From NCBI GenBank assembly GCA_964499705.1, contig CAZCME010000010.1, positions 22,280 through 86,279 on the forward strand: a stretch of 64,000 bases of DNA, in the 5' to 3' direction. Below the pieces are notes generated by a model, which saw only the letters and a program-made list of their open reading frames with translations, was not told the origin of the DNA and did not search any database. Shown here piece after piece: positions 31,101 through 46,956 of the stretch (positions are counted from its first letter, which is position 1; each line of letters opens with the position of its first letter). This DNA comes from an uncultured bacterium (GTDB lineage: Bacteria > UBA8481). Both the position numbers and the translations under genes were made by a program.

Positions 31101-31149
31101 GATCGACCACGAGGATTTTCTGGAACTGGGGAGACGCTACGGGCAGTAA
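25105..31149 (+). CDS. Giant secreted multi-domain protein (2014 aa), paralog of the preceding gene
   Basis: Same architecture and collinear conserved blocks: HHPKRPDHPGEAAAFRAL vs HPKPYDHPQEAAAQRF, GPEVAGIDS in both, Asp-box repeats, beta-helix repeats, FN3-like modules, and a near-identical dockerin-like tail ...DIGKNGVDGVIDHEDFLELGRRYGQ. Confidence 0.8.
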   Translation: MIPPAMAPRFLPVPMRFFLLSAILFIALSVPSWSAPLPDHKSISKIAWKHGAIHAGDRFAGLTREEWTEYFASRPRQILPDSATRDVDETVVARRLGLAPSLVRKVRTERSVDYRRMLEFSPPLLARVFWRTHHPKRPDHPGEAAAFRALQQRSEDGQIVENGLANAARQLEEMQENVRAGISPSFPGDPVPGEGPEVAGIDSTRWQALGPGNVPGRIRSAIIFPDSNIKVIGSVGGGIFRTTNGGQSWTAVNDFLANLAIGCMAQSPLQRDTIYAGTGEGFYNSDRIRGDGIFKSTDSGQTWTQLSATASNSSYRYVNRIAIDPGNVNILLAGTQTGIFRSTNAGASWSATAGAGEAMDVDFHPNNASFAVASGRNGNTWYSTDGGQNWTAATGIPSEANNRVEVAYAPSNGGVVYASCQRNSGELYRSTDSGVTYSLQNTGSSYLGSQGWYDNCLWVDPVNPDHVATGGIDVWRSTNAGANLTQISDWSQNSSGLSAHADHHILLSHPDYNGTTNREFYTGSDGGLAFTNDITTVAQTSGWTLLRNNIVTTQAYGGAGNPAGVFWLGTQDNGTPAYFGDSNAWTRHSSRSGDGGHCAADQLDANYLYGEYVYLTIYRSSNGGATATDIYSGITDADNSATAFFIAPFILDPNDQGRMYAGGVQLWRTSDVKATPPTWSSVKASNGNKISAIAVAPGNPNVIWVATSNSTITGANASEVFYTANGLEVSPTWTQVDGNGVTLPNRYCSRIAIDPRNPAHVYVTFGGYNTNNLYVTSDTGTTWTNVNATANPALPTAPIRTVVFGNYSSDSVYVGTEVGIFASANAGAAWSPSQDGPANVSVDQLFWVGADTLHAATHGRGLWRISVPRPDTTTPPPIDTTGPNVWYVNDTSTTGDSFTSGFGSDANSGVSRTAPKRTIAAVCAFLTTGDTVYIDAGTFGETMVAGSCTAVAIIDTMNVTLVGVDSLVTLLDPGDSSSGSNIRGIYADTISGLTIRNLRVSNARTGIEWYNVDTSTMASVDMVRNSAYGLLLFGGSESILVSTCGGSNNAQGIRILSSSRNTIRENVLESAAGAGISNEGSSNNAFIGNTARLNNEEGIFLTGSSGNSITGNVLAANGSDGVYLTSNSNGNRIEGNHIAANLQGILIDGSSGNVVAQNELSANTTYQIQLGIGASADTIERNNITTSSGKPESGVQNQTIARFDATRNWWGTADSATIRARIRGTGRDSVVSVPFRLGRVDTRPGFDTLAPRAPDTVAASDLSDTSVRVTWSTVGLNEDGSAGNGDLAGYRVYQSSSPDSTSWILRGTVSTATRTYDDSGLARMATYFYRVTAFDNASFENQSFFTDSIIGVVPGAIDSTGANVWYVNDSSTSGDSFTSAVGLVANHGLLPSAPKRGLAGVIPYLTAGDTVYIDAGTFQDSNLVLSVSDVIVEGKDSLATIVDANYETCFILRGAHRSIFRKVQIVNANYPGGLGQDHGAAIRLENSDSVVIASDSFLQNTWGVNLALGSDSATVTNCVFNPQTQFAVYVESGPQAVITGNTMISFGIGIENRSDSGIVAGNTMTNTVVNVTSSDSIRILGNSFSNVTITLTTAQRCDIESNTITTGGIVLNDDVLLCRLNGNSVTAVGATCFDIAGDTNTLINNFAFGSGVSGQGFWLKTAAAGNILTSNTASAKRNFGYLVQGTSNILDANLAVSCQDGGYRISGDTNVLNANTARTITAGAGFVVEGRNNVLRGNHASACSDSGFHLNGAVDNILSANHADSNLGYALAIVGSSSGNTVRKNSFVTSPTRPDSGVLLVSVAAVDLTRSWWNTTDSASIRNRIRGAGVVLAMYTPFRFGVIDTGYGADTVAPDSPVNLIVDTPAGQIRISWTAPSVNEGGTGGATGIAKYHIYRSRAADTTDWIGPIGETTATVYSDTRIATDTIYYYRVTAEDSASYPNRGFYSAIVSGSVPRVFADFSGDSTVNSADVPLILPRYRQPGLYNLIYDIGKNGVDGVIDHEDFLELGRRYGQ

Positions 31150-34120: not shown

Positions 34121-35713
34121 TTACCGCGCAGCCGTGTCCGGAGCGGTTTCCATCTCCGGTATATTCCATGCCTGGTTGGCGACGATCGTTGCGAAAGTCT
34201 GGGGACCGGCGACTCCGTCGATGGGAAGCTTTTCCGCGGTTTGGAACTGGCGGACGGCCTTGACAGTCGTGGGGCCGTAGTTGCCGTTCACGACGCCTTT
34301 GAAATAGCGGAGTTTATACAGAGCATTCTGGAGCTTCGTGACATCCTCGCCGCTGGAACCCGCGTAATAGTTGCGGGTAGGAAAATCGGCGGGCATGATG
34401 AAGGAGGCTGGATAACTCCGATCCAGGGCGATCTGCGACCATGGAATCATCTCCTCCGCGGCGCCATGAACCACGATGGCGGAATCCGGGATGCCTTCCA
34501 CAGGCCGGACGACGGCCAGTTCCTCCCCGCCGATTCCCTTCAGGCGCACCATCGTACGGAGCCCGATCGCGGCGAGCACTTCCGGGCGGCAGGCGATCTG
34601 GATCCACTTTCTGTCGTTCGACGCGGCCAGCATGTCGGGGCGGATGGTCTCCAGCGCCGACGCGGTGAATCCGAGCTCGACTCCGTTTTCCTGAAAGAAT
34701 TTCCGCAGCATTTCGCCTTCGCCCGGTTTCTGCTCGATCACCTCACGGACGATCTGCTGTTGCGTGATGACGGGCGGGGGAGCCGACTCCGGCGCTTCCT
34801 CGCGGCCCGGGCGCTGCAGGAACATCCAGAGGACCAGCAGCAGCACGGCCCAGGCGCCGAGTGCAGGCATGAGTTTCACGAGGCGGACGCCAGTGGAGGG
34901 AGCGGGCGGCAGGATGTCGGCGAATTCCTTCTCGGCCGATTCCACGTGAACGCGTTTCACAACCTGGGAATCATCTCGGCCTGCCGCGCGCACGCTTCCG
35001 TCCGCCAGAATGTTGATGACGCGGGGAATGCCTCCGCTTTTCGCATGGATGCGTTTCACTCCGGCAGGGGAAAAAGACACGGGGACGGCGGCGCCGGCAT
35101 TGGCGAGCCGATGCGTGAGATACTCGCCTGTTTCCTTCAGCTCCAGGGGCTTCAGGTGGCGGTGAACCGCCACGCGGCTCCGAAGCTGAACCATTTCCGG
35201 GCGCGCCAGAATCTCGCGGAGCGGATCCTGGCCGAAGAGAATGATCTGGACGAGCTTCTCGCTCTCGGTCTCCAGGTTCGAAATCATCCGCAGGAGCTCG
35301 AAGGATTCGAAAGAAAGGTGCTGCGCCTCATCGATGAAAATGGCAGTGTGGCGTTTCTCGGAATACATCCGCATCAGGTGCTCATAGAGCGCATCGATGA
35401 GGCTCTTCCGGTCCTTCGCTTCGCCGGATGCAATGCCGAGATCGTCCGCGATGGCGCGCATGAGCCCGTCGGGATCGAGGCCGGTGTTCAGGATCGCGGC
35501 GGTATTGAGGTTTTCGTATTCGGCGGAGAGGAAGCTCCGCATCAGAGTCGTCTTTCCCGCTCCGACTTCACCGGTCACGACAATGAATCCCTTGCCGGTC
35601 ATGATGCCCCGTGTCAGGGCTTCCCAGGCTTCCTCGAATTGCTTGTGGCGATAGACCATCCTCGGATCGGGAGTGACGCCGAAAGGATTGTATTCGAAGC
35701 CGAAATCGATCAT
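34121..35713 (-). CDS. ExeA/GspA-like AAA ATPase with a C-terminal peptidoglycan-binding domain
   Basis: Walker A GEVGAGKTTLMRSF. A central TM segment. A C-terminal PG_binding_1-like motif DVTKLQNALYKLRYFKGVVNGNYGPTTVKAVRQFQ...GVAGPQTF. Confidence 0.75.
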   Translation of the reverse strand: MIDFGFEYNPFGVTPDPRMVYRHKQFEEAWEALTRGIMTGKGFIVVTGEVGAGKTTLMRSFLSAEYENLNTAAILNTGLDPDGLMRAIADDLGIASGEAKDRKSLIDALYEHLMRMYSEKRHTAIFIDEAQHLSFESFELLRMISNLETESEKLVQIILFGQDPLREILARPEMVQLRSRVAVHRHLKPLELKETGEYLTHRLANAGAAVPVSFSPAGVKRIHAKSGGIPRVINILADGSVRAAGRDDSQVVKRVHVESAEKEFADILPPAPSTGVRLVKLMPALGAWAVLLLVLWMFLQRPGREEAPESAPPPVITQQQIVREVIEQKPGEGEMLRKFFQENGVELGFTASALETIRPDMLAASNDRKWIQIACRPEVLAAIGLRTMVRLKGIGGEELAVVRPVEGIPDSAIVVHGAAEEMIPWSQIALDRSYPASFIMPADFPTRNYYAGSSGEDVTKLQNALYKLRYFKGVVNGNYGPTTVKAVRQFQTAEKLPIDGVAGPQTFATIVANQAWNIPEMETAPDTAAR

Positions 35714-35740
35714 TTTCCAGAGAATCTTTCCCGCCGCGCT

Positions 35741-36640
35741 CTAGCGCCGCGCACCCACCACCATGTCCTTCAGGTCCATGAATTCATCGGGCAGCAGATC
35801 CGAGTCGATGTTGAAAACGTCCAGCTCCGCGCCCTCTATGAGCCATTGTCCGCCTGTCTTCTTATACATGATCCGCCCCGCTCCGGCAAGCCTGATAGTG
35901 GGCACCAGACCGGTCCTGGGCGCCAAGTCCATGGCGAGAATGTAACGCGCGGAGATGTCCGTGGAGGAAGCCGACTGGAAATCGGTCAGCATCACTTCGC
36001 TTTTGCTGGACGACGTGACGCTCGATACCCGGTAGAGCAAATCCCTGAATTCACGGATGGTCCTGCCCGCGAATCGTCCGGACGGTGACGTGTAGGCCAG
36101 CGTGCCGTCGATGTCGAAAAACTCGAGCCGCCTGAGGGCCGCCCATGTGATGCGACCGAGCTCGGCCTTGTCGCGGGCCGAGACGGCGTCGGCTCCGCGA
36201 GTCGCGCCGCGCCATGTCAGAAGCTCGGCAGCCAACCGCAATAATTTTCCGCGCGCGGGACGCATGCGCTTATTCCGAGGAGCGGAGGCTCCTTCGTCCG
36301 CGTATTCCGCTTCCAATCCGGCCACCAGAACTTCGCCTGACAGCAGGACGATGGAACCCTGGGAAACGAAGAGCGTCGTTGTGGGATGAGCCGGCGAATC
36401 GGGTTGCTCCACTTGAGCGCGATGCAGGCGGCCCATCCGATCCGCAACGACAACCTCGCCAGGAACGGCTTCCGAGGAGCCGTGATCCGTTGTGACGGCA
36501 ACCCGCGATTTCGCCGGTTCCAGTTTTGTTCGCGCGGCCTGAACCGATGTTGCCGCAATCAGGAGAGCGATGACGAATGCAAAAAGACTACGAAAGGCAA
36601 GAACGTGTCTGGCGGGTGGATAGGACGTGCCAGGTTTCAT
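35741..36640 (-). CDS. Hypothetical secreted protein
   Basis: Signal peptide LFAFVIALLIAATSVQA. Start overlaps the upstream stop (ATGA). No recognisable domain. Confidence 0.45.
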   Translation of the reverse strand: MKPGTSYPPARHVLAFRSLFAFVIALLIAATSVQAARTKLEPAKSRVAVTTDHGSSEAVPGEVVVADRMGRLHRAQVEQPDSPAHPTTTLFVSQGSIVLLSGEVLVAGLEAEYADEGASAPRNKRMRPARGKLLRLAAELLTWRGATRGADAVSARDKAELGRITWAALRRLEFFDIDGTLAYTSPSGRFAGRTIREFRDLLYRVSSVTSSSKSEVMLTDFQSASSTDISARYILAMDLAPRTGLVPTIRLAGAGRIMYKKTGGQWLIEGAELDVFNIDSDLLPDEFMDLKDMVVGARR

Positions 36641-37161
36641 TTCGCCGCGTCGTCCTCCACGGAAAGCAGGAACTCCGTGCGGTGGGCTTCGAGGGGCGCG
36701 CAGCTCATGTTTGGAGAATGGACCGTGATGAGTCCCGTGTCGCCGTCGGAACCGGAAGCGGCCGACTCGAGGATGAAATAAGCCGAGCCTTCCTTGAGGA
36801 AGAGATCGAGCCCGGCGCGTGGACCGCGCTGGGCGGACAGAAACGACATGGCCGAAGCGGGTCCCAGCAGAACTTCCGCATAGCCCTCCACCGAAATGAC
36901 GGCGCGCGTCGTGGGTGACGTGCGTACGATTTCTCCGAGGGAGAGAACTTCGTCCTCCGAGGCGTCGCGGATTCCCAGAGGCGACGTCACCACCGCGTCA
37001 CCGTCGAGACGCGCGATGCGGATGACCAGGTCAGCGCTCTCAAAGGGCTCCACGCGAACGGGCGCGGAAACCGTCTGTTTCGGCGTCATCCTGTATAGAA
37101 AGAAGATCTGCGCCGCAATGAGGAGCAGAAGCAGGGCCGGTGTAAGAAGCTTCCGGATCAC
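36637..37161 (-). CDS. Hypothetical membrane-anchored protein
   Basis: The GTG start at 37159-37161 lies 4 nt after the Wzc-like gene's stop. An N-terminal TM (LLLLLIAAQIFFLY). The ORF-track start at 37236 would overlap the Wzc-like gene by 70 nt. Confidence 0.4.
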   Translation of the reverse strand: MIRKLLTPALLLLLIAAQIFFLYRMTPKQTVSAPVRVEPFESADLVIRIARLDGDAVVTSPLGIRDASEDEVLSLGEIVRTSPTTRAVISVEGYAEVLLGPASAMSFLSAQRGPRAGLDLFLKEGSAYFILESAASGSDGDTGLITVHSPNMSCAPLEAHRTEFLLSVEDDAAK

Positions 37162-37165
37162 GGGT

Positions 37166-39301
37166 TCAGAATCTCGAGCCTTCGTCTTCGTAGCGATAAT
37201 AGCTGTACTTATAGCCGTAGAACTGCCCGACGGCATTGGCGTCGTTCATCACGATGCCGATGATGTGGCCTCCGACGTCTTCGATCGTTCTGATGACGGA
37301 TGCCGCCGCGGCTTCCTCCGCTTTGCCGACCATGTACACGAAAAGAACTCCGTCGGCGATACGGGCCACATTCAGGGCGTCGGAGACGGGAGCGGTTGGC
37401 GGCACGTCCACTAGAACGAAGTCGTACTGGGTGAGCGTGTCCCTCAGCAGTTGCGCGAATTCGGGAGAAGAGAGAAGGGAGGCGACGTTCGCGGCTCCGC
37501 GCACGCCCGAGGGAAGAATGTCGAGGTTCTTGATGCGAGTGGGACAGGCCGCTTTCTTCCACTCCATGTCGCCGTTCATGACCTCGAAGATGCCGGGCGA
37601 TTCCGCGACCTCGAAGATCTTGTGAATCGTGGGACGGCGAAGATTGGCGGAAACCAGGAGAACTTTCCGTCCCATTTCCGCCAGTGCGGCGGAAAGGTTG
37701 GATGAGGTCGTGGATTTCCCCTCCTGCGGTTCGGTGCTCGTGATGACCAGCAACCGCTGCGGCCCCACGTCAATCTTATGAGCCAGCGCCCGATAGGCTT
37801 CGGCTTCCGCCGCATTCGGTCGGGTTTCCACCACGAGGCGCTCCGAAGCGACATCGGAATTACCGATGCCTCCGGTGAAATGAGGGATGATCCCGATTAC
37901 CCGGCGGCCTAGAAGCATCTCCGCGGATCCCGGAGTCTTGATCGACCGATCGAGCGATTCCACCAGCAGCACCATCGCGAACGCCACCATGACGCCGATG
38001 CCCGAACCGAGCCAGAACGAACGCGAAAGGTCGGGATTGTCCGGCGCGCTTGGGCGGATGGCCGGTCTCACCCACTGCGCCATGTTCTCCCGGCCGGATT
38101 GTTCCAGCTGGAGCTCCGTGCGCTTCTTCGTGAGTTCCGTCAGCAGGCTTTCCCGGACGGTGACTTCAGAGCGGTAACGAGCCAGCGACATCGGGTTGGG
38201 AGTTCCGGTTTCCATCGGAAGGAAAAGTTGCGCGACCGGAGTCGTGTCGACGGGAATCCCGCGCGGTATAGACGCTTCCCGCTCCGCAAGCTGCGCGTCG
38301 ACGGTCCGGCCCCAGAGTCCGATCTGCTGTATGAGGTCGATCGATGCCTCCATGAGCTGCTTGTGAGCCACCGCCTTGTCCGGGTGGAAATCCGTCAGGG
38401 TCTTGGCCACCTCACGATATTTCTTCGAGCGATCCTCCCAGACGGCGCGGGAGGAATTCATGCGGTCGAGCGCCGCGCCCTCCAGGCCCTGAGCTATGTC
38501 TTCCGGGATGGCGGCATGAATTCCGATAATCGCCATCTCCATGTCGTCAAGAGATGGAGCCTGGCCCGACGCGAGAGAATCGCTGACCTGGTTCAGCACC
38601 ATCATGCGCTCCCTCAGCATGCGTCGGGCGGCCGTGATCCTGGCGGCGGAAATCCCCACGTTCTCTTCCTTGCCCTGGTGACCCATGCGCCGTTCCAGTT
38701 CCGCGATGACGGCGCGGTAGTTGGCGATCTCCAGTTCCGTCTTCCTGATTTCCGCATCGAGAAACTTCACCATCCGCTGGGAGGAATAGACCATGTCCTC
38801 CACGAGCGAGGGCCCGAAGGACGCGCCAAACGCATTCGCCAGCGAATAGACATAGTCCGGATCGCCGCCGGCGACGCTGATGCGGACGATGCGGCGTTTT
38901 CCAAGTTGCTCCGCCGATGTGACGGCGGATATTTCCTCGAACATGTTCAGCCATTCGGGCGTCTTCTGCGGAGGAACTGTTCCCAGCACGCCCGTGCGGA
39001 TGACGGCGCCGATGCACCCTTCCGATTTCACATGGTTCACGTAATACGGGATATTGTTTTCGGCGCCGCTGCGAGGATCCGCCGGCGTGAAGATTCCCCG
39101 GGACATGATGGGTTCCGGAGCAATCGCGATGTCGATGAAGCAGGAGAAGTAACGGGGACGGTTGGTCTCGTGAAGAACGGCGGTTACGCACACGGAGAGC
39201 CAGGCGACCAGCGCCACGATCCAACGCTTCTTGAGGATTCTCCAGTAGTCGACCAGTCCGGGCGCGCGCTCCGTGGATTCGGCGGATCGTGGACTATTCA
39301 T
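37166..39301 (-). CDS. Polysaccharide co-polymerase / tyrosine autokinase (Wzc/GumC/CapB-like), exopolysaccharide transport family
   Basis: N-terminal Wzz-like domain with two TMs. C-terminal P-loop ATPase EGKSTTSSNLSAALA (Walker A) and a C-terminal Tyr-rich tail (YGYKYSYYRYE). Confidence 0.85.
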   Translation of the reverse strand: MNSPRSAESTERAPGLVDYWRILKKRWIVALVAWLSVCVTAVLHETNRPRYFSCFIDIAIAPEPIMSRGIFTPADPRSGAENNIPYYVNHVKSEGCIGAVIRTGVLGTVPPQKTPEWLNMFEEISAVTSAEQLGKRRIVRISVAGGDPDYVYSLANAFGASFGPSLVEDMVYSSQRMVKFLDAEIRKTELEIANYRAVIAELERRMGHQGKEENVGISAARITAARRMLRERMMVLNQVSDSLASGQAPSLDDMEMAIIGIHAAIPEDIAQGLEGAALDRMNSSRAVWEDRSKKYREVAKTLTDFHPDKAVAHKQLMEASIDLIQQIGLWGRTVDAQLAEREASIPRGIPVDTTPVAQLFLPMETGTPNPMSLARYRSEVTVRESLLTELTKKRTELQLEQSGRENMAQWVRPAIRPSAPDNPDLSRSFWLGSGIGVMVAFAMVLLVESLDRSIKTPGSAEMLLGRRVIGIIPHFTGGIGNSDVASERLVVETRPNAAEAEAYRALAHKIDVGPQRLLVITSTEPQEGKSTTSSNLSAALAEMGRKVLLVSANLRRPTIHKIFEVAESPGIFEVMNGDMEWKKAACPTRIKNLDILPSGVRGAANVASLLSSPEFAQLLRDTLTQYDFVLVDVPPTAPVSDALNVARIADGVLFVYMVGKAEEAAAASVIRTIEDVGGHIIGIVMNDANAVGQFYGYKYSYYRYEDEGSRF

Positions 39302-39322
39302 GGAGCGAGTGATTCAGGACGC

Positions 39323-40864
39323 TTACTGGTCTGAGCTCTTGAGATCATCCCCGACGGTTCCCACCTCGACGACCGTGCTGGCGGTGCCGTTCAAGGGGGC
39401 AAGGAGCTGATTCCAGAACGAGAGCGTGTAAGAGAGGATTCCCTGGGGTACGAAGACGACATCGCCGTTCTCCAGCATCATGTTCTGAGTAAGATCACCA
39501 TCCAACAGGCTCTTGATGCTGACCTTGTAAACCTTCGGATTATCCGGCCAACCGCGCACGACGCGGACGTCATACGTCCGGGCGTTGGCGGAGGAGATGT
39601 TGGCCATGGTGAGAGCCTGCAGAAGCGTGAAACTGCCCTGGCGGGTGTGCAGGCCGGGAGAACCAACCTGGCCCAGCACGAAGACTCCGATATCGGTGAT
39701 TTCGGGGATGATGATCGAATCGCCGTTGCGGAGCACCTTGTCCTCGCGCGCGTCGCCCTGGAACCAGAGCGCGTTGAGGTTGCAGGGCTCGATGGATCCG
39801 TCAGCCCGGAGAATGAAGGCCTTCGAGATGTGAGCTTTCGCTCCCCACGTGGATGATTCCAGGAGGAGATCGCGCACGCGGAGCGCGCGATTCATGGGAA
39901 AAACGTATTTTCCGGGCTTGGTGAAGGCGCCCAGGAGATTGACGACCTGCTCGCGGCTGGGAATGATCACGAGGTCGCCCGGCTCCACGTAGATATTTTC
40001 TTCGATGCGCTGGCCTTTCAGGACCGAGGCTATGTCGCACGTGATTTTCGAGTCGCCGCGGGAAACGGTCACATCGGAGAGATCCGCGCGATCTTTGCTC
40101 CATTTCGCCTGGACCAGGAGATCCAACAGGCGCGTGGGACGGTCGATGGTGAAGGGGCCCGGAGCTTCGACTTCACCCACGACCGTGACATCCTTACCGC
40201 CCGGTTCGGCCACGGTGACCGTGACGGCGGGCTGGATCAGGTAGCGCCGGAGCTTGCCGGCAATCGTGGCCGATGCCTGGTCGACAGTCAGGCCCGACAT
40301 CCGGATTGAACCGGCAAGCTTGACGACGATTGTGCCGTCCCGGGCCACTCGAGTCCGTGTGTTCAGATTGTCCTGTCCCCAGACGAAGACATCGAGAACG
40401 TCCCCGCTTCGGATGCGGTAAGCGTGAGGATCCACGGGCATGGAGTCTTCGTACGCGGGGGGAACTTCGGTGGGAAGCGGCGCCGCTTGATACGGTAGGT
40501 ATGGCGAATGAGCGACCAAGGGCGGAAGGGGATCGGGCGACATCTGAACTCGCTCTCGAATCGGGGCACCGGCCGGGAAGAGATCGCGCGGATCGATGAT
40601 GATCTCCCAGGGGCCCGGAGGCGCCGCATGCGACAGATCCTCGATCGGGGCGGCAGTGATGGGCGGCTCGGGTGTGGACGCCACGAACCGAAAGGTGTCG
40701 CGTGTGATTTGGGCGTTGGTGTCGACGTCAGGCAGTGAAGAAGTGCCCCAGGCGGCGGGGCTGACGAGCGCGGTCAGGGACTTTTTGACAGTGACTGTGT
40801 CGCAGAGAAGGATCAGAACCGCGATGGTCGCGGGCAACATCGGATTCTGAAACCATTTCCTCAT
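39323..40864 (-). CDS. Polysaccharide export outer-membrane protein (Wza-like; Poly_export + SLBB domains)
   Basis: YRIRSGDVLDVFVWG (Poly_export motif). Repeated SLBB-like soluble-ligand-binding beta-grasp segments. Signal peptide. 513 aa. Confidence 0.8.
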   Translation of the reverse strand: MRKWFQNPMLPATIAVLILLCDTVTVKKSLTALVSPAAWGTSSLPDVDTNAQITRDTFRFVASTPEPPITAAPIEDLSHAAPPGPWEIIIDPRDLFPAGAPIRERVQMSPDPLPPLVAHSPYLPYQAAPLPTEVPPAYEDSMPVDPHAYRIRSGDVLDVFVWGQDNLNTRTRVARDGTIVVKLAGSIRMSGLTVDQASATIAGKLRRYLIQPAVTVTVAEPGGKDVTVVGEVEAPGPFTIDRPTRLLDLLVQAKWSKDRADLSDVTVSRGDSKITCDIASVLKGQRIEENIYVEPGDLVIIPSREQVVNLLGAFTKPGKYVFPMNRALRVRDLLLESSTWGAKAHISKAFILRADGSIEPCNLNALWFQGDAREDKVLRNGDSIIIPEITDIGVFVLGQVGSPGLHTRQGSFTLLQALTMANISSANARTYDVRVVRGWPDNPKVYKVSIKSLLDGDLTQNMMLENGDVVFVPQGILSYTLSFWNQLLAPLNGTASTVVEVGTVGDDLKSSDQ

Positions 40865-41053: not shown

Positions 41054-41278
41054 TCAGCAGTCACCTACGGGAAAAGGCAGCGGATTTACTCCTTCGTTGC
41101 AGGTATTGGCCGCATCGCAGCCGATACACGCCGGTGTCCAGGACGTGGCAACCAGATCACAGACAAGCGAATTGCAGTCGACCTGGCAGAGCGAGCTGGA
41201 ATTGGAAGGCGATTGACCGTGATGGCCGATCGTGATTCTTTCGTAGCACGTCAGTGCCGGCTTCTTATAGAGCTTCAT
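41054..41278 (-). CDS. Candidate RiPP precursor peptide (74 aa, 8 Cys)
   Basis: MKLYKKPALTCYERITIGHHGQSPSNSSSLCQVDCNSLVCDLVATSWTPACIGCDAANTCNEGVNPLPFPVGDC. It sits immediately downstream of two radical-SAM/SPASM genes in the same orientation, overlapping the second by 14 nt. Its GC content is noticeably lower than that of its neighbours. Confidence 0.5.
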   Translation of the reverse strand: MKLYKKPALTCYERITIGHHGQSPSNSSSLCQVDCNSLVCDLVATSWTPACIGCDAANTCNEGVNPLPFPVGDC

Positions 41279-42311
41279 AGGGTCCCGGTTTGGATCCGTA
41301 AAGTGCCATGGTCACCAGGCATCGCTCCAGGGGAGGTTCATGGAACATTCCCGTGGCAGCGTGGCTGTGGCCGAGGCAGGTATGACAACGTGTGACATAT
41401 TGGCATCCGGAGCAACGACTGAAGCGGTCGTACTCGACGTCGTGGGGGATTGGATGCGAACCCTCCTCACGGGCATGGAGGGATTGCCACGTCTCGATCA
41501 GTCCTTCGCGGCGGACATGACCAATGGGTTTCCTGATGGTTACGCAGGTGAGTATCTCCCCGCGCGCCGTGACGGCGAGCGTGTTCATTCCCTGGGCGCA
41601 GATTTTAATCCCGCCCGTCCCGTTCTGGCTCGAGGGCAGTGTGGCCCCGGGCCATCGGGCTTCGACGAGGCGGATCTGTTCCGGTGTGAGAAAATCCCCG
41701 TCCAGATTCCGGCCGAGATCAGAGTTCATGAGGAAGTAATCCCTCTTCACGGAGCAATCCAGTTCCCCGGCGAGTGCTCGCATCGCTTCGAGTTCATGAA
41801 CGTTCCAGCGGAACAGTGTCACGGAAAGGGAGACCGGGATTTTTTTCGCGCGGACGGCTTTGATGCCCTCGATTGTCTTTTCGAAGGATCCGGCGATTCG
41901 CGTGCAACGCTCGTGCGTCGCGGCTGTCGCTCCGTAAAGAGAGACATCCATGTGCCCGACGCCCGCGTCGGCGAGCTGGAGCGCGAGCCTCTGGAGCAGG
42001 ATACCGTTGCTTTTCAGGGAGACGCACATCCGGAGGCGGCGGGCATGCCGGATGAGCGGCAGGAGACCCGGGAAGGTTGTCGCTTCGCCTCCCGTGAAAC
42101 AGACGGCGAATGTCTTGATCGCCGCGAGTTCATCCAGCACCCGGTGCCAATGCTCCTCCGTCATATCGTCCGCCGCATAATACGCCGGGCTTTCCCGCAC
42201 GCAGTGGACGCAGCCGTGATTGCATCGGTTCGTCAGTTCCAGGATGGCGACGGAGGGAGCGGGAAACTGGATGAATTTGCGGTTGAGCACCATGGGGTCG
42301 GCGCGATTCAT
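41265..42311 (-). CDS. Radical SAM / SPASM-domain peptide-modifying enzyme (paralog B)
   Basis: CNHGCVHC (the CxxxCxxC radical-SAM cluster motif). C-terminal SPASM cysteines CSGCQYVTRCHTCLGH. 348 aa. ATGA overlap with the upstream paralog. Confidence 0.85.
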   Translation of the reverse strand: MNRADPMVLNRKFIQFPAPSVAILELTNRCNHGCVHCVRESPAYYAADDMTEEHWHRVLDELAAIKTFAVCFTGGEATTFPGLLPLIRHARRLRMCVSLKSNGILLQRLALQLADAGVGHMDVSLYGATAATHERCTRIAGSFEKTIEGIKAVRAKKIPVSLSVTLFRWNVHELEAMRALAGELDCSVKRDYFLMNSDLGRNLDGDFLTPEQIRLVEARWPGATLPSSQNGTGGIKICAQGMNTLAVTARGEILTCVTIRKPIGHVRREGLIETWQSLHAREEGSHPIPHDVEYDRFSRCSGCQYVTRCHTCLGHSHAATGMFHEPPLERCLVTMALYGSKPGPYEAL

Positions 42312-43321
42312 GCCGTTGGAAATCCGTGGAGAGACATCATTGCATAGCAGCGTTCGAGCGGCGGCTCGTAAAATTCTCCGGTGGCTGCCTGGTTATGCCC
42401 CGGACAGACATGGCACTTCGGAAGGAAGTCGCACTTCAGGCAACGGGAAAACCGATCATAGTCCAGATTGTGCGGCCGGCCATTCTCCGTCGATCTTCTC
42501 CAGACGGCCGCCACGCCTTCGCCGCGAACATGACCCATGGGTTCGCGGATCGTGATGCAGGAAAGGATCTCTCCGCGCGCGGTGATCGCCATGCGATTGA
42601 TCCCCTGCGTGCAGAACCTCACTTTCGTGGATCCGTTCTGGTGCGAGGGAATTGTCATCATTGGCCACGATTGTTCGATGGCGCGGATCTGGGACGGGGT
42701 GCAGATATCCCCGGGCGTTCTTCCCAGGTCGGTGGTCGTCATGATGTATTCGCGATTGACGGAGCAGCCTGTCTCGGCGGCGAATTGCCGGATGGCATGC
42801 AACTCGTCGGCATTCCAACGGAAGAGCGAGATGTTGATCATGACGGCGATGCCCTCGGCTCGCGCGGCGCGGATGCCGGCCGTCGTGCGGGCGAACGATC
42901 CCGGCACGAGCGTGCATCGTTCGTGAGTCGCGGCCGTGGATCCGTACAGCGAGACGTCGATCAGGCCGACGCCATCCGCTTTCAGCGGCGAGGCCAGCCG
43001 GGACAAGTTCAGGCCGTTTGTCTTCAGTGCCACTCTCATATTCAGCTTTCTGGCGTAACGGATCAGGAGGAGCAGGTCGGGATGGAGCGTGGCTTCGCCG
43101 CCGGTGAAGCAGACCGTGAAGGTGTTGATGTCGGCGAGCTCATCGAGGACGCGAAGCCACTCCTCCGTCGTCAGTTCGTCGGTATGATGGAGACTGGGAC
43201 TTTCCCGGACACAGTGCGTGCAATCGAGATTGCACCGGTTGGTGAGCTCCAGCATGGCAGCCGTGGGAGTAGGTTTTCGCTGAAAAACCTGATTAACTTC
43301 CCCTGACGTGAGCTTGATCAC
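42308..43321 (-). CDS. Radical SAM / SPASM-domain peptide-modifying enzyme (paralog A)
   Basis: CNLDCTHC (the CxxxCxxC motif). SPASM tail CLKCDFLPKCHVCPGH. About 55% identical to paralog B along the full length. Confidence 0.85.
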   Translation of the reverse strand: MIKLTSGEVNQVFQRKPTPTAAMLELTNRCNLDCTHCVRESPSLHHTDELTTEEWLRVLDELADINTFTVCFTGGEATLHPDLLLLIRYARKLNMRVALKTNGLNLSRLASPLKADGVGLIDVSLYGSTAATHERCTLVPGSFARTTAGIRAARAEGIAVMINISLFRWNADELHAIRQFAAETGCSVNREYIMTTTDLGRTPGDICTPSQIRAIEQSWPMMTIPSHQNGSTKVRFCTQGINRMAITARGEILSCITIREPMGHVRGEGVAAVWRRSTENGRPHNLDYDRFSRCLKCDFLPKCHVCPGHNQAATGEFYEPPLERCYAMMSLHGFPTA

Positions 43322-43418
43322 GATCCCGATGGATTATTATATTCCCCTTTAAACTGGCGTGCGAGGGTTATGTAAGTAATTTACCAATCTTCAACGTACT
43401 AGGGGCTTTTACACAGGC

Positions 43419-44237
43419 ATGATAATCTGTCTTATCCTCATGTTTCCACTCCAGCTTGGAAAAACTGAATTTGAGATTTTTCTACCCGATGTCGTCATTT
43501 CCTCCATGTTGCCGGCCTACCTCCACTCCCTGCCCTGTGAAGAACTACCCCTCGTCGGTTCGCAAATACGAATGCACGCCATGGATGAAGCACCCGCGAC
43601 GGCGCTCGACGTGCCGGATCAATTCGGATTCTACCGGGCCAGATATCTCCGTTCCGGGAATTCCTGGGATTTTTTCACAAGCGTCCCACAGGGGCCGACC
43701 AAGCCGGATATTCTTCCGACCAGGTCCGTGACGCCCGCCGTGCTGACCGTTCTGGCTCACCAGGGAGTCCTCGCGATTCATGGTTCCGCTGTAATCCGTC
43801 ATGACAAGGCTCTGCTCTTCGTGGGGCCCAGCGGGAGCGGAAAATCCACGATGGCGGATCAGCTCTCAAGTTTCGGGTGTGAGTTTTTTTCCGAGGATAG
43901 AGTGCTTGTCTGGCGAACATCGGAAGGCATCATGGCGACTCCGTCGTTCGAAGCCGGTAATCCGTTCGGCCGGTGGGTCGGTTGTGTGCCCGAAACCGGA
44001 CGGCGGCCTCCGAAGCGGAGAACGCCTCCTTATGGCCGCGTGGCGCCTGCGGGGAAAGTTTATTTTCCGGAAGTGAGGCCCGGCGAGGAATCCTCCCGAT
44101 TCGCCCTTCCACGCCAGGAAGCATTCGTGCGATTGGCCGCGTCCACGATCGGCACATGGGATGCTCTGCCGGAAGGGATGGAAACGGAAGGGCTGATACT
44201 GGGGACAAATGCGGTGAAGCTGGCGGCTGAGCTTTAA
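43419..44237 (+). CDS. HPr kinase/phosphorylase C-terminal-domain-like P-loop protein (HprK-related kinase)
   Basis: GVLAIHGSAVIRHDKALLFVGPSGSGKSTMADQL matches the HprK C-terminal P-loop pattern (GxSGxGKS plus the preceding HG motif). It is divergent from the rSAM operon. Confidence 0.65.
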   Translation: MIICLILMFPLQLGKTEFEIFLPDVVISSMLPAYLHSLPCEELPLVGSQIRMHAMDEAPATALDVPDQFGFYRARYLRSGNSWDFFTSVPQGPTKPDILPTRSVTPAVLTVLAHQGVLAIHGSAVIRHDKALLFVGPSGSGKSTMADQLSSFGCEFFSEDRVLVWRTSEGIMATPSFEAGNPFGRWVGCVPETGRRPPKRRTPPYGRVAPAGKVYFPEVRPGEESSRFALPRQEAFVRLAASTIGTWDALPEGMETEGLILGTNAVKLAAEL

Positions 44238-45301
44238 GGATATTGCCCCGGAAAATCCAGACCTGCCGTTTCCGGAAGACCCATCATGATATTCAGGTTC
44301 TGGATCGCGTTGCCGGCCTGCCCCTTCATCAGGTTGTCGATGTGCGAGACGATGATCGCCTTCTTCGTCCGGGTATCGAGATTGATCCAGATGTTGACGT
44401 AGTTCGAACCCCGGACGTCGGATGTGGACGGAGCGGCGGACGGCGGCAGGATGCGGACGAACTTCTCGTTCTTATAGAAATCCTGGTAGCTTTCGACGAG
44501 GCTGTCCACGCATGTGACCCGTGTGCCGGCGTAGATCGTCGCGAGGATTCCTCTGGTCATCGGCGCCACATGAGGTGTGAATGTGATCGTGACCTCTTTT
44601 CCAGCCAGCCGCGACAATTCCCGTTCGACTTCGTAGACGTGCTGGTGGCCCGCGACCTTGTACGCGTTGAACGAATCGTATCGGGCGGGATAATGGAATC
44701 CGGGAGCGGGCTTCTTGCCGGCGCCCGAGACGCCGGACTTGCAGTCGCAGATGATGGATTCCGGATCGATGAGCGACCTCTGCACGGCGGGCGCGAGCCC
44801 GAGTATGCAGGCGATGGCGAAGCAACCCGGGTTGCCGACGAGCTTCGACTGCGCGATGGCGTTTCGATGGAGCTCGGGAATGCCGTACACGGTTCGGGAT
44901 AACAGCGCCGGCGCATCATGATCCGCCGGCTTGCCGATTCTCGTGGAGTATGCCGCGAAGTGGTTCTCCGAGGAGAACCGGAAGTCGCCGGAATAGTCGA
45001 TGACCTTGACGCCCTTTTCGATGAACCGGGCGGCGTGTTTCTGGCCGACGCCGTCGGGCGTGGAGAAGAGCGCGATATCGAGATTATCGCATACGGCAGG
45101 ATCTTCGAGCGAAGTGATGGGGAGGTCGCAATATCCCGCGAGATGGGGGTAAATGGCGGAGAGCGGCTTTCCGACTTCGGTCAGCGAAACGACGCGGACG
45201 ATCCGCGTGTAAGGATGCCTGAGCAGAAGTTCAATCGCCCCCACGCCGCCATATCCGCCTGCTCCGATGACGGCGACCCTGATTCCGGTTTCATCCTTCA
45301 T
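44234..45301 (-). CDS. argC: N-acetyl-gamma-glutamyl-phosphate reductase
   Basis: AVIGAGGYGG (NAD-binding motif). Active-site Cys in GCFAIACILGLAP. SGVSGAGKK. NLMKGQAGNAIQNLN. 355 aa. Confidence 0.85.
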   Translation of the reverse strand: MKDETGIRVAVIGAGGYGGVGAIELLLRHPYTRIVRVVSLTEVGKPLSAIYPHLAGYCDLPITSLEDPAVCDNLDIALFSTPDGVGQKHAARFIEKGVKVIDYSGDFRFSSENHFAAYSTRIGKPADHDAPALLSRTVYGIPELHRNAIAQSKLVGNPGCFAIACILGLAPAVQRSLIDPESIICDCKSGVSGAGKKPAPGFHYPARYDSFNAYKVAGHQHVYEVERELSRLAGKEVTITFTPHVAPMTRGILATIYAGTRVTCVDSLVESYQDFYKNEKFVRILPPSAAPSTSDVRGSNYVNIWINLDTRTKKAIIVSHIDNLMKGQAGNAIQNLNIMMGLPETAGLDFPGQYP

Positions 45302-45336
45302 ACATCATCCCTCATCCTTGATATAATGATGGCGCC

Positions 45337-46956
45337 ATGACGCCCCAGGAACTTGCAGAGCGGCTCCGCGTTTCGCCGCGAACCGGCTCGGCCGGGCCGC
45401 CCGACAGCGCCGGAGTATATATCTTCCGCGATGGAAGAAAACATCCCATTTACATCGGAAAGGCCCTGTCGCTCGCGGACAGGCTCTCCTCCTACCGCGC
45501 CTCCAACCTGCCCGACAAGACGGCGGCGATGATCGCGGCCGCGCGGAGCGTGGACTGGATCGTTTTCCAGACGGAGATGGAAGCGCTCTTGTGCGAAGCG
45601 GCGATGGTGCGGCAGTACAAGCCCAAGTACAACATCCTCCTGCGGGATGATAAACGATTTCCGATGATCCTCCTGACGGACGAGCCATACCCGAAGGCGT
45701 TGAAAGTGCGACGCGCCAGGAAGGGAGCCGGGCGCCACTTCGGTCCCTTCGGCGGTTCGACGGCGTTTCATCTCCTGGAGATCATATCCCGGAGGTTCAA
45801 GATCCGGCGCTGCGGAGGACCCCTGCCGAAGCGCGACAGACCCTGCATCGATCACGAGATCGGGCGGTGCGACGCGCCGTGCGTCGGTTCCATCGGCCGG
45901 GCGGAATACGGCATGCTCGTGGAGAGCGCCGCGCATCTGCTCGCGGGGGATGTTCGCGCGTTGGCGCGCGAACTGGAGGAGGAGATGCGCCATGCTTCTT
46001 CGGAGAAGCAATTCGAGAAAGCCGCGTCGCTTCGGGATGAAGTCGCCGCGCTGAAAAGCGTCCTGGAGAAACAGAACGCGGAGAAGCCGGGCCGCGATGA
46101 CGCGGACGCCGTTGCCGTGGAAATCGGCGATTCGTTCGCGGTAGGCGTGGTTCTCTCGCGAAGAAACGGCGCCGTGGTGGATCGGGCTGCGTATGTGTTC
46201 GAGACTCCCATCGAGACCGATGCGGATGAAATCCTTGCGAAGACGGCGTCGGCTCATTATGAGCAACACGCGGCGCCGCCGGAAATCCTCGTGCCGAAAC
46301 CGGTGTCGATGCCGGGTCGCGTTTATCGAGTGCCGATGCGCGGTCCCGATGCCGCGCTTTTGAAACTGGCCGATGACAACGCGCGCGAGACACTGCGGGA
46401 TGTCTCCGGGGCGCGCGGTTCCGAGGTCAGGAACCGCGCGCTCGTCGAACTGGCGGAGGCGCTCGGCATGGAGAATGCTCCGCGCACGATCGAGGGGATC
46501 GACATCGCGACCTTCGCCGGGAAGGACACCGTCGGGGCCTGCGTTCATTTTCATGACGCTCTGCCCCGGAAGGCCGGCTATCGGCTCTTTCGGATCCGCG
46601 GCCGCCAGGACAGCGACGTCGACGCGATCGAGGAAGTGATGGCGCGTAGAATGCACCTGAAGGAACCGTGGCCGGATCTCTTTCTCATCGACGGCGGAAT
46701 GGGACAGCTTCTGGCCGCGTTCCGCGCCCTGGAGGAATCGGCGAGGGAACGAGGGATCGTGGCGCCGGCGATCGTCTCGCTCGAAAAACGCGACGAGCTG
46801 ATTCGAACGGTGGAAGGGGAGGTGATCGAGCTGCCTCGGCACGCGGCGGCGTTGAAGCTCCTGCAGCATGTCCGCGACGAAGCGCACCGGTTCGGAGGAA
46901 ATTATCACCGGAAGATTCGCGGAAGCTCAGGCGGACTGGCTCGAACGTCGCGTTAA
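45337..46956 (+). CDS. uvrC: Excinuclease ABC subunit C
   Basis: N-terminal GIY-YIG (GVYIFRD...IYIGKA). A central Cys-rich segment. UvrB-interacting and C-terminal RNaseH-like/HhH regions. 539 aa. Confidence 0.85.
   Translation: MTPQELAERLRVSPRTGSAGPPDSAGVYIFRDGRKHPIYIGKALSLADRLSSYRASNLPDKTAAMIAAARSVDWIVFQTEMEALLCEAAMVRQYKPKYNILLRDDKRFPMILLTDEPYPKALKVRRARKGAGRHFGPFGGSTAFHLLEIISRRFKIRRCGGPLPKRDRPCIDHEIGRCDAPCVGSIGRAEYGMLVESAAHLLAGDVRALARELEEEMRHASSEKQFEKAASLRDEVAALKSVLEKQNAEKPGRDDADAVAVEIGDSFAVGVVLSRRNGAVVDRAAYVFETPIETDADEILAKTASAHYEQHAAPPEILVPKPVSMPGRVYRVPMRGPDAALLKLADDNARETLRDVSGARGSEVRNRALVELAEALGMENAPRTIEGIDIATFAGKDTVGACVHFHDALPRKAGYRLFRIRGRQDSDVDAIEEVMARRMHLKEPWPDLFLIDGGMGQLLAAFRALEESARERGIVAPAIVSLEKRDELIRTVEGEVIELPRHAAALKLLQHVRDEAHRFGGNYHRKIRGSSGGLARTSR

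Follow-up and report, generated by a model that had tools for sequence, protein, structure and literature searches.

A rare radical SAM/SPASM enzyme pair and a cysteine-rich peptide form a probable RiPP-type maturation module in an uncultured bacterial lineage

The question raised by this locus is whether a short cysteine-rich ORF, two neighboring radical SAM (rSAM)/SPASM genes and a divergently transcribed P-loop gene constitute one biosynthetic unit, and of what kind. All four ORFs occur in the ORF list of the window (the whole 64,000-nt stretch of DNA that was analysed) at the predicted coordinates and on the predicted strands (Table 1), and the junctions proposed for them are likewise found in the sequence: an ATGA overlap joins rSAM-A to rSAM-B on the minus strand (GGCATGAAT), and 14 nt (41265-41278) are common to rSAM-B and the ORF of the eight-cysteine peptide. 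The operon is ordered rSAM-A, rSAM-B, peptide and is translationally coupled. The P-loop gene is divergent as predicted but does not lie 98 bp away; the spacer measures 97 nt if translation begins with the ATG at 43419, or 118 nt if the protein starts at M8 (43440), the start favored by orthologue P0057 and by a 265-aa public gene call. No transporter or protease gene is linked to the cluster at the window locus, in agreement with the prediction. The cluster adjoins PEP-CTERM-type exopolysaccharide (EPS) genes.

Table 1. Features of the locus (positions within the window)
Feature	Position	Strand	Description
rSAM-A	42308-43321	-	337 aa, GTG start; paralogous radical SAM/SPASM enzyme; CxxxCxxC at aa 30-37 (nt 43211-43234)
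rSAM-B	41265-42311	-	348 aa radical SAM/SPASM enzyme; CxxxCxxC at aa 30-37 (nt 42201-42224)
SPASM 7-Cys region of rSAM-B	41319-41600	-	aa 238-331
Precursor-like peptide gene	41054-41278	-	74 aa, 8 Cys; MKLYKKPALTCYERITIGHHGQSPSNSSSLCQVDCNSLVCDLVATSWTPACIGCDAANTCNEGVNPLPFPVGDC
Leader-like N-terminal part of peptide	41189-41278	-	aa 1-30; motif Y-x-K-P-x-L-x-x-Y-E ... G ... S-x-x-N
Cys-rich core-like part of peptide	41057-41188	-	aa 31-74; C-Q-x-D-C-x4-C-D-L ... C-x2-C-D ... C ... D-C
Divergent intergenic spacer, AT-rich	43322-43439		rSAM-A to P-loop gene; GC 0.41
ScmC/HprK-related P-loop protein	43440-44237 or from ATG 43419	+	265 aa (from M8) or 272 aa
Walker A of P-loop protein	43824-43850	+	GPSGSGKST

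A 74-codon ORF in DNA of 60% GC is not by itself beyond chance, and the window's ORF list contains many shadow ORFs. It is conservation in other genomes that places the peptide ORF above chance, and on this comparative evidence the small ORF is real. When the neighbors of related rSAM genes were inspected for peptide homologues, as the original prediction had proposed, a homologous Cys-rich ORF directly followed the rSAM gene in 10/10 of the loci that extend far enough, and its frame, start position and Cys pattern are kept in 13 sequences across different contexts. An exhaustive phmmer search of 1.8e9 proteins added only three small homologues; its matches P0047-P0055 were long Cys-rich repeat proteins, driven by composition, and were set aside. 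A word-indexed homology search returned nothing except the peptide itself, and no Pfam or NCBIfam model matches it.

The peptide divides into two parts that are conserved to different degrees. Residues Y4, K6, P7, L9, Y12, G18, S23, N26, C31, C35, C51 and C60 are invariant in the family alignments, and the N-terminal motif Y-x-K-P-x-L-x-x-Y is invariant throughout the family. The leader is better conserved than the core, with mean identities over 45 pairs of 55 per cent (leader), 41 per cent (core) and 52 per cent (rSAM), and corresponding values of 96, 53 and 84 per cent in the closest pair (L026/L107). Within the core the Cys scaffold is kept while the residues between the cysteines differ, Asp or Asn recurs beside or near Cys, and CxxC-type spacings are present. 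The window peptide ends in ...VGDC, and across the family the last residue is C, L, I, P or A.

Both enzymes belong to the radical SAM/SPASM superfamily. They are paralogues of 55-56 per cent identity, each with C30-x3-C34-x2-C37 and the full seven-Cys SPASM pattern for two auxiliary clusters, and they score 75.5 and 79.8 bits against Radical_SAM (PF04055; cutoff 29.5); against Pfam SPASM, rSAM-B scores above the cutoff (26.5 bits) and rSAM-A just under it (19.6 against 21.5). The HMM searches proposed with the prediction thus returned the superfamily and SPASM matches but no subfamily above its cutoff, and neither enzyme reaches the cutoff of any curated family. From its GTG start, the N-terminus of rSAM-A aligns with those of rSAM-B and relatives, and with CxxxCxxC beginning at residue 30 there is no domain ahead of the rSAM core. 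The enzymes form a small isolated clade of ∼17 sequences whose next relatives are at most 30 per cent identical; a scan of genome contigs with rSAM-B gave relatives all at or below 32 per cent identity, genuine SynChlorMet (SCM) cassettes L006 and L025 among them, and when metagenomes were scanned with the family alignment, one further locus, the short L037, came to light. The A and B enzymes occur as a pair in 6 of 11 loci, and the rSAM-A clade takes in L026A/P0012 and P0017, so the duplication is older than the split of these organisms. Taken together, the genes make up a probable peptide-modification system that is rare and has as yet no name; it occurs in about a dozen uncultured bacteria, with one member of the family labelled Candidatus Hydrogenedentota.

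The original prediction had placed the cluster in a lower-GC pocket and suggested horizontal acquisition, but the pocket does not lie in the genes themselves. The rSAM genes (GC 0.600-0.605, GC3 0.72-0.74) resemble the 31 other genes of the window (GC 0.611 ± 0.018, GC3 0.72 ± 0.07); the dips are mostly two intergenic spacers (0.41 and 0.46), together with the peptide ORF (0.55) and, mildly, the P-loop gene (0.584). Since the pocket comes down to two AT-rich spacers, composition lends no support to horizontal transfer. When 40.7-44.4 kb was scanned for Rfam families, repeats, promoters and terminators, neither a riboswitch nor mobile-element boundaries turned up, and promoter signals did not exceed chance; the divergent spacer has no Rfam match, and its sigma70-like matches, one per strand, amount to 2 found against 1.3 expected. 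A recR-GYF_2-GlnD locus that is syntenic in the relatives was sought elsewhere in the window and not found, the candidates at 5.6-12.2 kb being unrelated genes such as squalene/phytoene synthase.

There is good reason to think that peptide and enzymes form a small, lineage-restricted, leader-guided maturation module of the RiPP type. As a putative RiPP system, the predicted combination of peptide and rSAM pair holds, but the P-loop protein as a core member probably does not. Most likely the rSAM pair cross-links the Cys-rich peptide, and the chemistry is probably thioether formation. The conserved segment Y-x-K-P-x-L-x-x-Y-E...G would serve as recognition leader and the Cys-rich remainder as core, and the 74-aa peptide would be worked on by a dedicated radical SAM/SPASM enzyme or by two of them. 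Each enzyme may bind the leader directly or via an unlinked factor, as the locus has neither an RRE/PqqD domain nor such a gene. SAM would be cleaved reductively at the CxxxCxxC cluster and a hydrogen atom taken from a core residue that serves as acceptor, after which Cys sulfur would be joined to the acceptor carbon while the two SPASM auxiliary clusters handle substrate and electron. Each link should cost 2 Da, and up to ∼7 intramolecular thioethers of the sacti- or ranthipeptide type could form, the most likely acceptors being the Asp, Asn and Thr that recur beside Cys. In loci with both paralogues, these probably share out the sites, as is presumed for ScmE/ScmF and is the case for TrnC/TrnD of thuricin CD. 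The product may stay cell-associated, as with SCIFF, or depend on unlinked functions, possibilities that arise because no protease or exporter is linked here.

Characterized thioether systems offer partial parallels. Like the SCIFF and other ranthipeptide systems (CteB-thermocellin, PapB-freyrasin), the module places one short Cys-rich peptide with a core rich in Cys and Asp/Thr beside a dedicated rSAM/SPASM enzyme, and is widely conserved inside one lineage, in many cases with neither protease nor exporter linked; the links made by PapB run from Cys to Asp within Cys-Xn-Asp motifs (PMC9413430). The window maturases differ in being minimal (337-348 aa) and, given that CxxxCxxC begins at residue 30, in having no N-terminal RRE domain. 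The peptide also exceeds theirs in length, carries a lasso/ScmA-like leader and often comes with two paralogous enzymes. Family peptides have no SCIFF match, and the SCIFF and PapB maturase models are absent from the best 25 NCBIfam families of the rSAMs, all of which score under cutoff. The sactipeptide maturases AlbA, SkfB, TrnC/TrnD and StsB are likewise thioether-forming rSAMs with SPASM or twitch domains, and thuricin CD offers a precedent for two cooperating rSAMs (PMC12093266). Unlike the window enzymes, which are of the same enzyme class, those maturases carry an N-terminal RRE, and their clusters include protease, transporter and immunity genes. Scores against the StsB model (63-88 bits, cutoff 625), the AlbA model (65 bits, cutoff 850) and the SkfB model are all far under cutoff.

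Among named systems, Haft's uncharacterised SynChlorMet cassette comes closest. It is bioinformatically defined by a ScmA precursor with ScmC, ScmD, ScmE and ScmF (NCBIfam TIGR04248-TIGR04252); a literature search gave 0 matches for its name and no experimental paper, and nothing relevant on ScmC or on RiPPs of this lineage. It is possible, though we consider it somewhat unlikely, that the four genes are a divergent cassette of this type in which the ScmC/HprK-like protein is integral and required, perhaps phosphorylating the peptide or standing in for ScmD as an ATP-dependent leader partner. The component logic of genuine cassette L025 (ScmD, ScmE, ScmF, two ScmA and ScmC) does match that of the window: two side-by-side rSAM/SPASM enzymes, an HprK-related protein of the ScmC family, and a ∼75-aa precursor that begins M-x-Y-x-K-P-x-L and has several Cys in its C-terminal half, the Y-x-K-P-x-L start being present in genuine ScmA precursors as well. 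Both clusters also adjoin PEP-CTERM-type EPS genes. A third, unrelated locus (L108/L109) has a ScmC-like gene between two rSAM genes, followed by a 3-Cys small ORF (...YQPPQIVRV...), and ScmC-family genes lie beside rSAM/SPASM pairs in three of the four loci examined.

Every test of membership nonetheless fails. The window rSAMs are only ∼27 per cent identical to ScmE/F and score 118 and 107 bits against ScmE (TIGR04250) and 60 and 66 bits against ScmF (TIGR04251), where the cutoff is 400 for each and the genuine L025 proteins reach 622 and 616. Family peptides do not match ScmA (TIGR04252) even at E up to 10, compared with E 2e-5 for the L025 peptides, and their hhalign profile match to ScmA is weak (E 0.004, probability 8 per cent) and covers the leader only; the core styles also differ, C-Q-x-D-C / P-C-x-x-C-D in the window family as opposed to repeated N-C-K-S-G / K-C-S-L-G-S in ScmA. 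No PqqD-like ScmD (TIGR04248) was matched when the L025 ScmD was run by phmmer against every stop-to-stop ORF in the window and in 11 family loci, in a single-sequence search that a very remote RRE could escape.

The P-loop protein itself points the same way. It has the HprK C-terminal-domain fold and a Walker A motif, but it falls far below the ScmC cutoff (TIGR04249, 16 bits, E 0.005, cutoff 125; genuine ScmC 286 bits). Its precomputed Pfam annotation as ScmC (PF27840) is marked 'weak', and in BLASTP against the L025 ScmC only 53 residues align, around the P-loop. Although the predicted divergent gene is present, it is no conserved partner: it adjoins the module only in the window, no ScmC-like gene lies next to the module in nine other loci of this rSAM/peptide family, and the only close orthologue (53 per cent identity) sits between trpB and fliD. 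The protein is probably an accessory outside the conserved core, and accessory at most; as a lineage-specific addition it may phosphorylate the peptide or give ATP-dependent handling, and would not be a family-wide requirement. Lasso kinases phosphorylate a C-terminal Ser (PMC8498205). The window peptide, unlike the substrates of these paeninodin-type HPr-kinase homologues, ends in Cys, the sequence match to those homologues is limited to the Walker-A region, and no lasso B/C genes are among the neighbors of the cluster.

A larger conjecture would join the two systems, and we regard it as a long shot. ScmC-family HprK-fold proteins may mark a broader, unrecognised super-architecture in which two rSAM/SPASM enzymes go with a ScmC-like ATP-binding protein and a Cys-containing peptide whose leader reads Y-x-x-P-x-(L/I), with three unrelated instances in the window, the L025 cassette and L108/L109. 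The P-loop protein, and not a PqqD-type RRE, would then handle or phosphorylate the leader-bearing peptide. As genes for PEP-CTERM-type exopolysaccharide adjoin both the window cluster and the L025 cassette, the product might have a functional link to the biogenesis of that exopolysaccharide or of the cell surface.

Other readings concern the chemistry. The enzymes might make no Cys thioethers at all, and instead form a C-C or cyclophane link on conserved Tyr/His, epimerise the peptide or effect another radical change, leaving the cysteines to disulfides or metal binding. This is unlikely, as the invariant core positions are Cys and not every member shares the aromatic segment after G18 (L034 reads GEAS); to our knowledge, moreover, Cys-dominated precursors paired with SPASM enzymes have so far all been sacti- or ranthipeptides.

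It is less probable still that the peptide is the precursor of a peptide-derived cofactor, after the manner of PqqA/PqqE, MftA/MftC or QhpC/QhpD, or a small Cys-rich protein, redox-active or metal-binding, that is matured by the rSAM(s) and used intracellularly. PqqE is the best sequence relative of the rSAMs among solved structures (SkfB is second), most loci lack a linked protease or exporter, the surroundings of the relatives are conserved and chromosome-like, and the core's CxxC-type spacings would suit such a role. The reactive residues of cofactor precursors stay invariant, however, and here core and C-terminus vary save for the Cys positions, down to 53 per cent identity where the enzyme retains 84 per cent; no linked genes encode the companion enzymes of a cofactor pathway, and in one subclade an ABC exporter gene follows the peptide gene.

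That the rSAMs are non-peptide enzymes (AhbD/NirJ, anSME or viperin type) beside a fortuitous shadow ORF is effectively refuted because peptide and rSAM co-occur in 10/10 loci, and against it stand also the conserved frame, start and Cys pattern of the ORF, AhbD/NirJ-, anSME- and viperin-type scores that are generic rSAM-core matches far under cutoffs, no haem or sulfatase genes nearby, and a peptide without the C-x-P/A-x-R sulfatase motif. anSME was rejected in its own right: the peptide has no C/S-x-P/A-x-R motif, the scanned flanking genes include no sulfatase, and anSME is absent from the rSAM sequence matches at E up to 1e-5, although its fold score is as high as that of the others. Anti-phage defence was set aside as well, the PADLOC matches being generic pVip rSAM-core only.

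The thioether-forming, leader-guided module favored here does not overturn the current understanding of RiPP biosynthesis; it is a sound genome-mining lead and no new kind of biology. With it, an uncultured and little-explored lineage contributes an rSAM/SPASM-plus-precursor family not yet curated, and because the precursor, the usual bottleneck of rSAM-RiPP mining, is clearly identified, the chemistry of the family is open to direct co-expression tests. Minimal RRE-less maturases facing a leader that looks to be of the RRE type make a useful case for RRE-independent leader recognition, and the paralogue pairs are a natural experiment on the division of labor between two rSAMs. The never-characterised SynChlorMet cassette, for its part, gains a second and a third comparator.

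Two paralogous radical SAM enzymes, rSAM-A and rSAM-B, and a Cys-rich peptide are encoded by a translationally coupled module that is a new, uncurated family in a well-known kind, that of rSAM/SPASM maturases with Cys-rich precursors. The four open reading frames of the region, which include a divergent P-loop gene, lie on the strands and at the positions originally predicted, and both overlaps were reproduced: at the minus-strand junction of the rSAM genes (GGCATGAAT) an ATGA is common to the stop of rSAM-A and the start of rSAM-B, and rSAM-B overlaps the small frame by 14 nt. The divergent spacer, claimed to be 98 bp, measures 97 nt to the ATG at 43419 and is probably 118 nt, with the P-loop protein starting at M8 (nt 43440), because the equivalent of M8 is the first residue both of its one close orthologue (P0057) and of the 265-aa protein called publicly. 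The P-loop gene also overlaps the convergent argC by 4 nt at the 3' ends (window 44234-44237) and is thus tightly wedged between the rSAM operon on one side and a housekeeping gene on the other. Three very long antisense frames were rejected as genes, being typical of high-GC3 coding DNA.

Coordinates of features in the window and in other loci (L numbers) from public genomes and metagenomes
Feature	Sequence	Coordinates	Strand	Remarks
rSAM-A	window	42308-43321	-	337 aa, GTG start
rSAM-B	window	41265-42311	-	348 aa
Small peptide ORF	window	41054-41278	-	74 aa, 8 Cys
P-loop ORF	window	43419-44237	+	272 aa
Antisense shadow ORF	window	41340-42347	+	335 aa, opposite rSAM genes
Antisense shadow ORF	window	42326-43306	+	326 aa, opposite rSAM genes
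Antisense shadow ORF	window	45298-46908	-	536 aa, opposite uvrC
Giant paralogue	window	19208-25030	+	1940 aa
Giant paralogue	window	25105-31149	+	2014 aa
Exopolysaccharide genes	window	34121-40864	-
rSAM-A paralogue	L034	4144-5136	+
ATPase and phosphatase genes	L025	6296-7548
Duplicated ScmA region	L025	10031-10892
Signal peptidase I gene	L025	11734-12483
ABC ATPase	L035	2591-3349
ABC ATPase and ABC_tran_2 genes	L106	2285-4710
rSAM/SPASM, ScmC-like and small-ORF locus	L109	3-3054

Both enzymes, which share 55–56 per cent identity, have a CxxxCxxC motif at residues 30–37 and intact SPASM ligands (C238 ... G-x4-C256 ... C300-x2-C-x5-C-x2-C312 ... C331), a pattern invariant or nearly so throughout the clade alignment. 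Profile searches bore out the rSAM assignment: Pfam Radical_SAM scores well over threshold for both, Pfam SPASM over threshold for rSAM-B and just under it for rSAM-A, and no NCBIfam model reaches its cutoff against either (best ScmE, 118 bits versus 400, and AhbD, 131 bits versus 500). In a database of 5.8 billion clusters the family comprises 17 members at 49–100 per cent identity, followed by a gap to 29 per cent; a scan of 241 million metagenome records yielded one further short locus, and GTDB species representatives yielded none. A family profile ranks PqqE (105 bits) and SkfB (101 bits) first among solved relatives, with much weaker matches to CteB and SuiB and none to anSME at E values up to 1e-5. 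Paired rSAM genes are present in six of 11 loci (the window, L026, L030, L034, L037 and L107). L034 is a pair rather than a single because it holds an intact rSAM-A paralogue (60 per cent identical to that of the window over 334 aa) that the public gene call overlooked in favour of ORFs on the opposite strand. Window rSAM-A groups with L026-A in a neighbour-joining tree and window rSAM-B with L026-B, L107 and L034-B, so the duplication is older than these organisms.

A 74-codon frame in this DNA alone means little, and the original prediction had made its case depend on conservation beside homologous rSAM genes. Such conservation is found: in all 10 loci extending past the last rSAM gene (the window, L026, L027, L029, L030, L034, L035, L105, L106 and L107) it is directly followed by a Cys-rich ORF of 70–94 aa, usually overlapping the rSAM stop by 4–20 nt. 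Run exhaustively against 1.8 billion representatives, phmmer gave three additional small homologues and no other credible ones, and no Pfam or NCBIfam model matches the peptide. In alignments, one of them over 13 sequences, Y4, K6, P7, L9, Y12, G18, S23, N26, C31, C35, C51 and C60 are invariant and Q32, C40, T45, C54, D55, G63 and P66 nearly so. Mean identity over 45 pairs is 55 per cent for the leader (residues 1–30), 52 per cent for the rSAMs and 41 per cent for the core (residues 31–74), and the closest pair, L026 and L107, gives 96, 84 and 53 per cent. This better conservation of leader than of Cys-rich core is the signature of RiPP precursors and speaks against a cofactor precursor, whose reactive residues should not vary.

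Cys dominates the core, and Asp, Asn and Thr recur beside it (C-Q-x-D-C, C-D-L, P-C-D-x-C-D). In loci with paired rSAMs T45 tends to be followed by an extra Cys and C40 by an Asp, as against Ala and Thr in single-rSAM loci; this pattern, which is confounded with phylogeny, hints at an added cross-link. In the proposed chemistry the leader would guide binding, the rSAM would generate a 5'-deoxyadenosyl radical that abstracts hydrogen from a residue of the core, and Cys sulfur would capture that residue, leaving several intramolecular thioethers in the peptide. Ranthipeptide synthases of the PapB type join Cys and Asp residues that stand in a Cys-Xn-Asp arrangement, n being 0–6 (PMC9413430). Thioether formation by these rSAMs is in our judgement an evenly balanced prospect, with a minor share of probability going to other radical chemistry in its place. 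Neither rSAM has room for an N-terminal RRE (a PqqD-like leader-binding domain) and both end shortly past the SPASM domain; the leader could be read by the rSAM itself through direct binding, by an unlinked RRE or, in the window lineage, by the P-loop protein.

Three contigs from Hainich groundwater metagenomes (Hain_H51) carry identical genes. A tentative lineage assignment is suggested by the label Candidatus Hydrogenedentota on one member of the family, P0013. Most relatives share a neighbourhood of flagellar rod/ring genes, recR, the rSAM gene or genes, the peptide gene, and genes for GYF_2-domain, GlnD-like (UTase/HD/ACT) and MBL-fold proteins, in this order, a synteny conserved in L026, L027, L029, L030, L105 and L107. 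The context of L034 differs, and in the divergent subclade of L035 and L106 an ABC ATPase gene follows the peptide gene, with an ABC_tran_2 gene after it in the longer stretch of L106, which suggests export in that subclade only. The window module also lies outside the common context, and no recR/GYF_2/GlnD locus turned up anywhere else in the 64 kb; it is flanked by argC/uvrC and, 189 nt downstream on the same strand, by an exopolysaccharide export operon. Given these varied contexts, the conserved unit is a two- or three-gene module relocated over evolutionary time. The exopolysaccharide genes, the next ones after the peptide gene, are of PEP-CTERM/XrtA type: they encode a Wza-like exporter (TIGR03027, 148 bits), a Wzc-like tyrosine autokinase and a TIGR03015-like ATPase (232 bits) whose fused C-terminus is peptidoglycan-binding or hydrolase-like, and two of them are unknown. 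The window also carries tandem giant paralogues with Sortilin/BNR-like, NosD/right-handed beta-helix and fibronectin type III domains, which are probably secreted or surface proteins.

A lower-GC pocket had been taken as a sign of horizontal acquisition. The dip is present, but its sources are the peptide ORF, which is short, and two intergenic spacers rich in AT (GC 0.41 and 0.46) rather than the rSAM genes, whose GC (0.60) and GC3 (0.72–0.74) match those of 31 other window genes (0.611 ± 0.018 and 0.72 ± 0.07). Flanking repeats, RNA families and element boundaries were looked for and not found, and the composition lends no support to recent acquisition.

The HprK fold claimed for the P-loop neighbour stands, although sequence matches to known families are confined to the Walker-A region: NCBIfam gives HprK_rel_B at E 8e-10, HprK_rel_A at 4e-7 and ScmC at 0.005, Pfam Hpr_kinase_C reaches 16 bits where its cutoff demands 33, and precomputed Pfam annotation is weakly ScmC (PF27840). 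Its tie to the module is weaker. No such gene lies near the module in the other nine loci, and the sole close orthologue (53 per cent identity) sits between trpB and fliD; the family as a whole clearly needs no adjacent P-loop gene. This orthologue (L033) and the rSAM and peptide genes of L105 come from the same sequencing run (SRR22388345) with similar composition (GC 0.646 and 0.631, tetranucleotide correlation 0.93), and thus may sit in a single genome without being linked. In the lasso peptide precedent the kinases act on a C-terminal Ser (PMC8498205), whereas the window peptide ends in Cys.

Two Syntrophaceae loci from the genome scan are genuine SynChlorMet (SCM) cassettes, which are defined bioinformatically by the ScmA precursor with ScmC, ScmD, ScmE and ScmF. 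The genuine example L025 scores 125 bits for ScmD, 622 for ScmE, 616 for ScmF and 286 for ScmC, and between ScmF and ScmC it holds two tandem copies of a 75-aa ORF (MNYEKPLLIDFAMEDRAEGKNNCKSG...) with five Cys that match the ScmA model at E 2e-5, the gene being duplicated with its upstream region as near-identical frames of 126/127 aa. Downstream of ScmC, a signal peptidase I gene, SipW-like or of archaeal type, encodes a candidate leader peptidase. ScmA has the same N-terminal motif, Y-x-K-P-x-L-x-x-[FY], as the window family peptides, and a six-frame search for this motif with at least three Cys, over all loci collected to that point, returned only family peptides and ScmA. Profile-profile comparison is weak and restricted to the leader (E 0.004, probability 8 per cent), and the common Y-x-K-P-x-L is treated as a putative recognition motif rather than as demonstrated homology. 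The window cluster thus shares the logic of SCM but is not a member: its scores fall short in every test of SCM membership, and it lacks ScmD.

A third arrangement, unrelated to either, occurs in L108 and L109, where a distant ScmC-like protein (P0058) is encoded between two rSAM/SPASM genes that are followed by a small ORF (...YQPPQIVRV...) with three Cys; none of these proteins reaches an NCBIfam cutoff. The small ORF (MNRPLKYPYQPPQIVRV...) is Ser-rich and ends in Ser, with a Fic gene next. ScmC-family genes thus accompany rSAM/SPASM pairs and Y-x-x-P-x-(L/I) peptides in three of four loci examined, which makes chance adjacency of the P-loop gene in the window less likely, and we would call its functional link to the module there a toss-up. 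Exopolysaccharide genes adjoin both the window cluster and the L025 cassette, which is directly preceded by TIGR03015-like ATPase and Wzb-like phosphatase genes, but these two cases could be a matter of chance; a super-architecture built around ScmC and linked to PEP-CTERM exopolysaccharide genes, for which there are three loci, seems quite improbable.

The RiPP interpretation is therefore supported for the rSAM–peptide core, while the role of the kinase-like protein and horizontal transfer are not established. The module resembles SCIFF in its lineage-wide, minimal organization and the window cluster resembles SCM in component logic, and the module is a good, directly testable mining lead that would not surprise a specialist.
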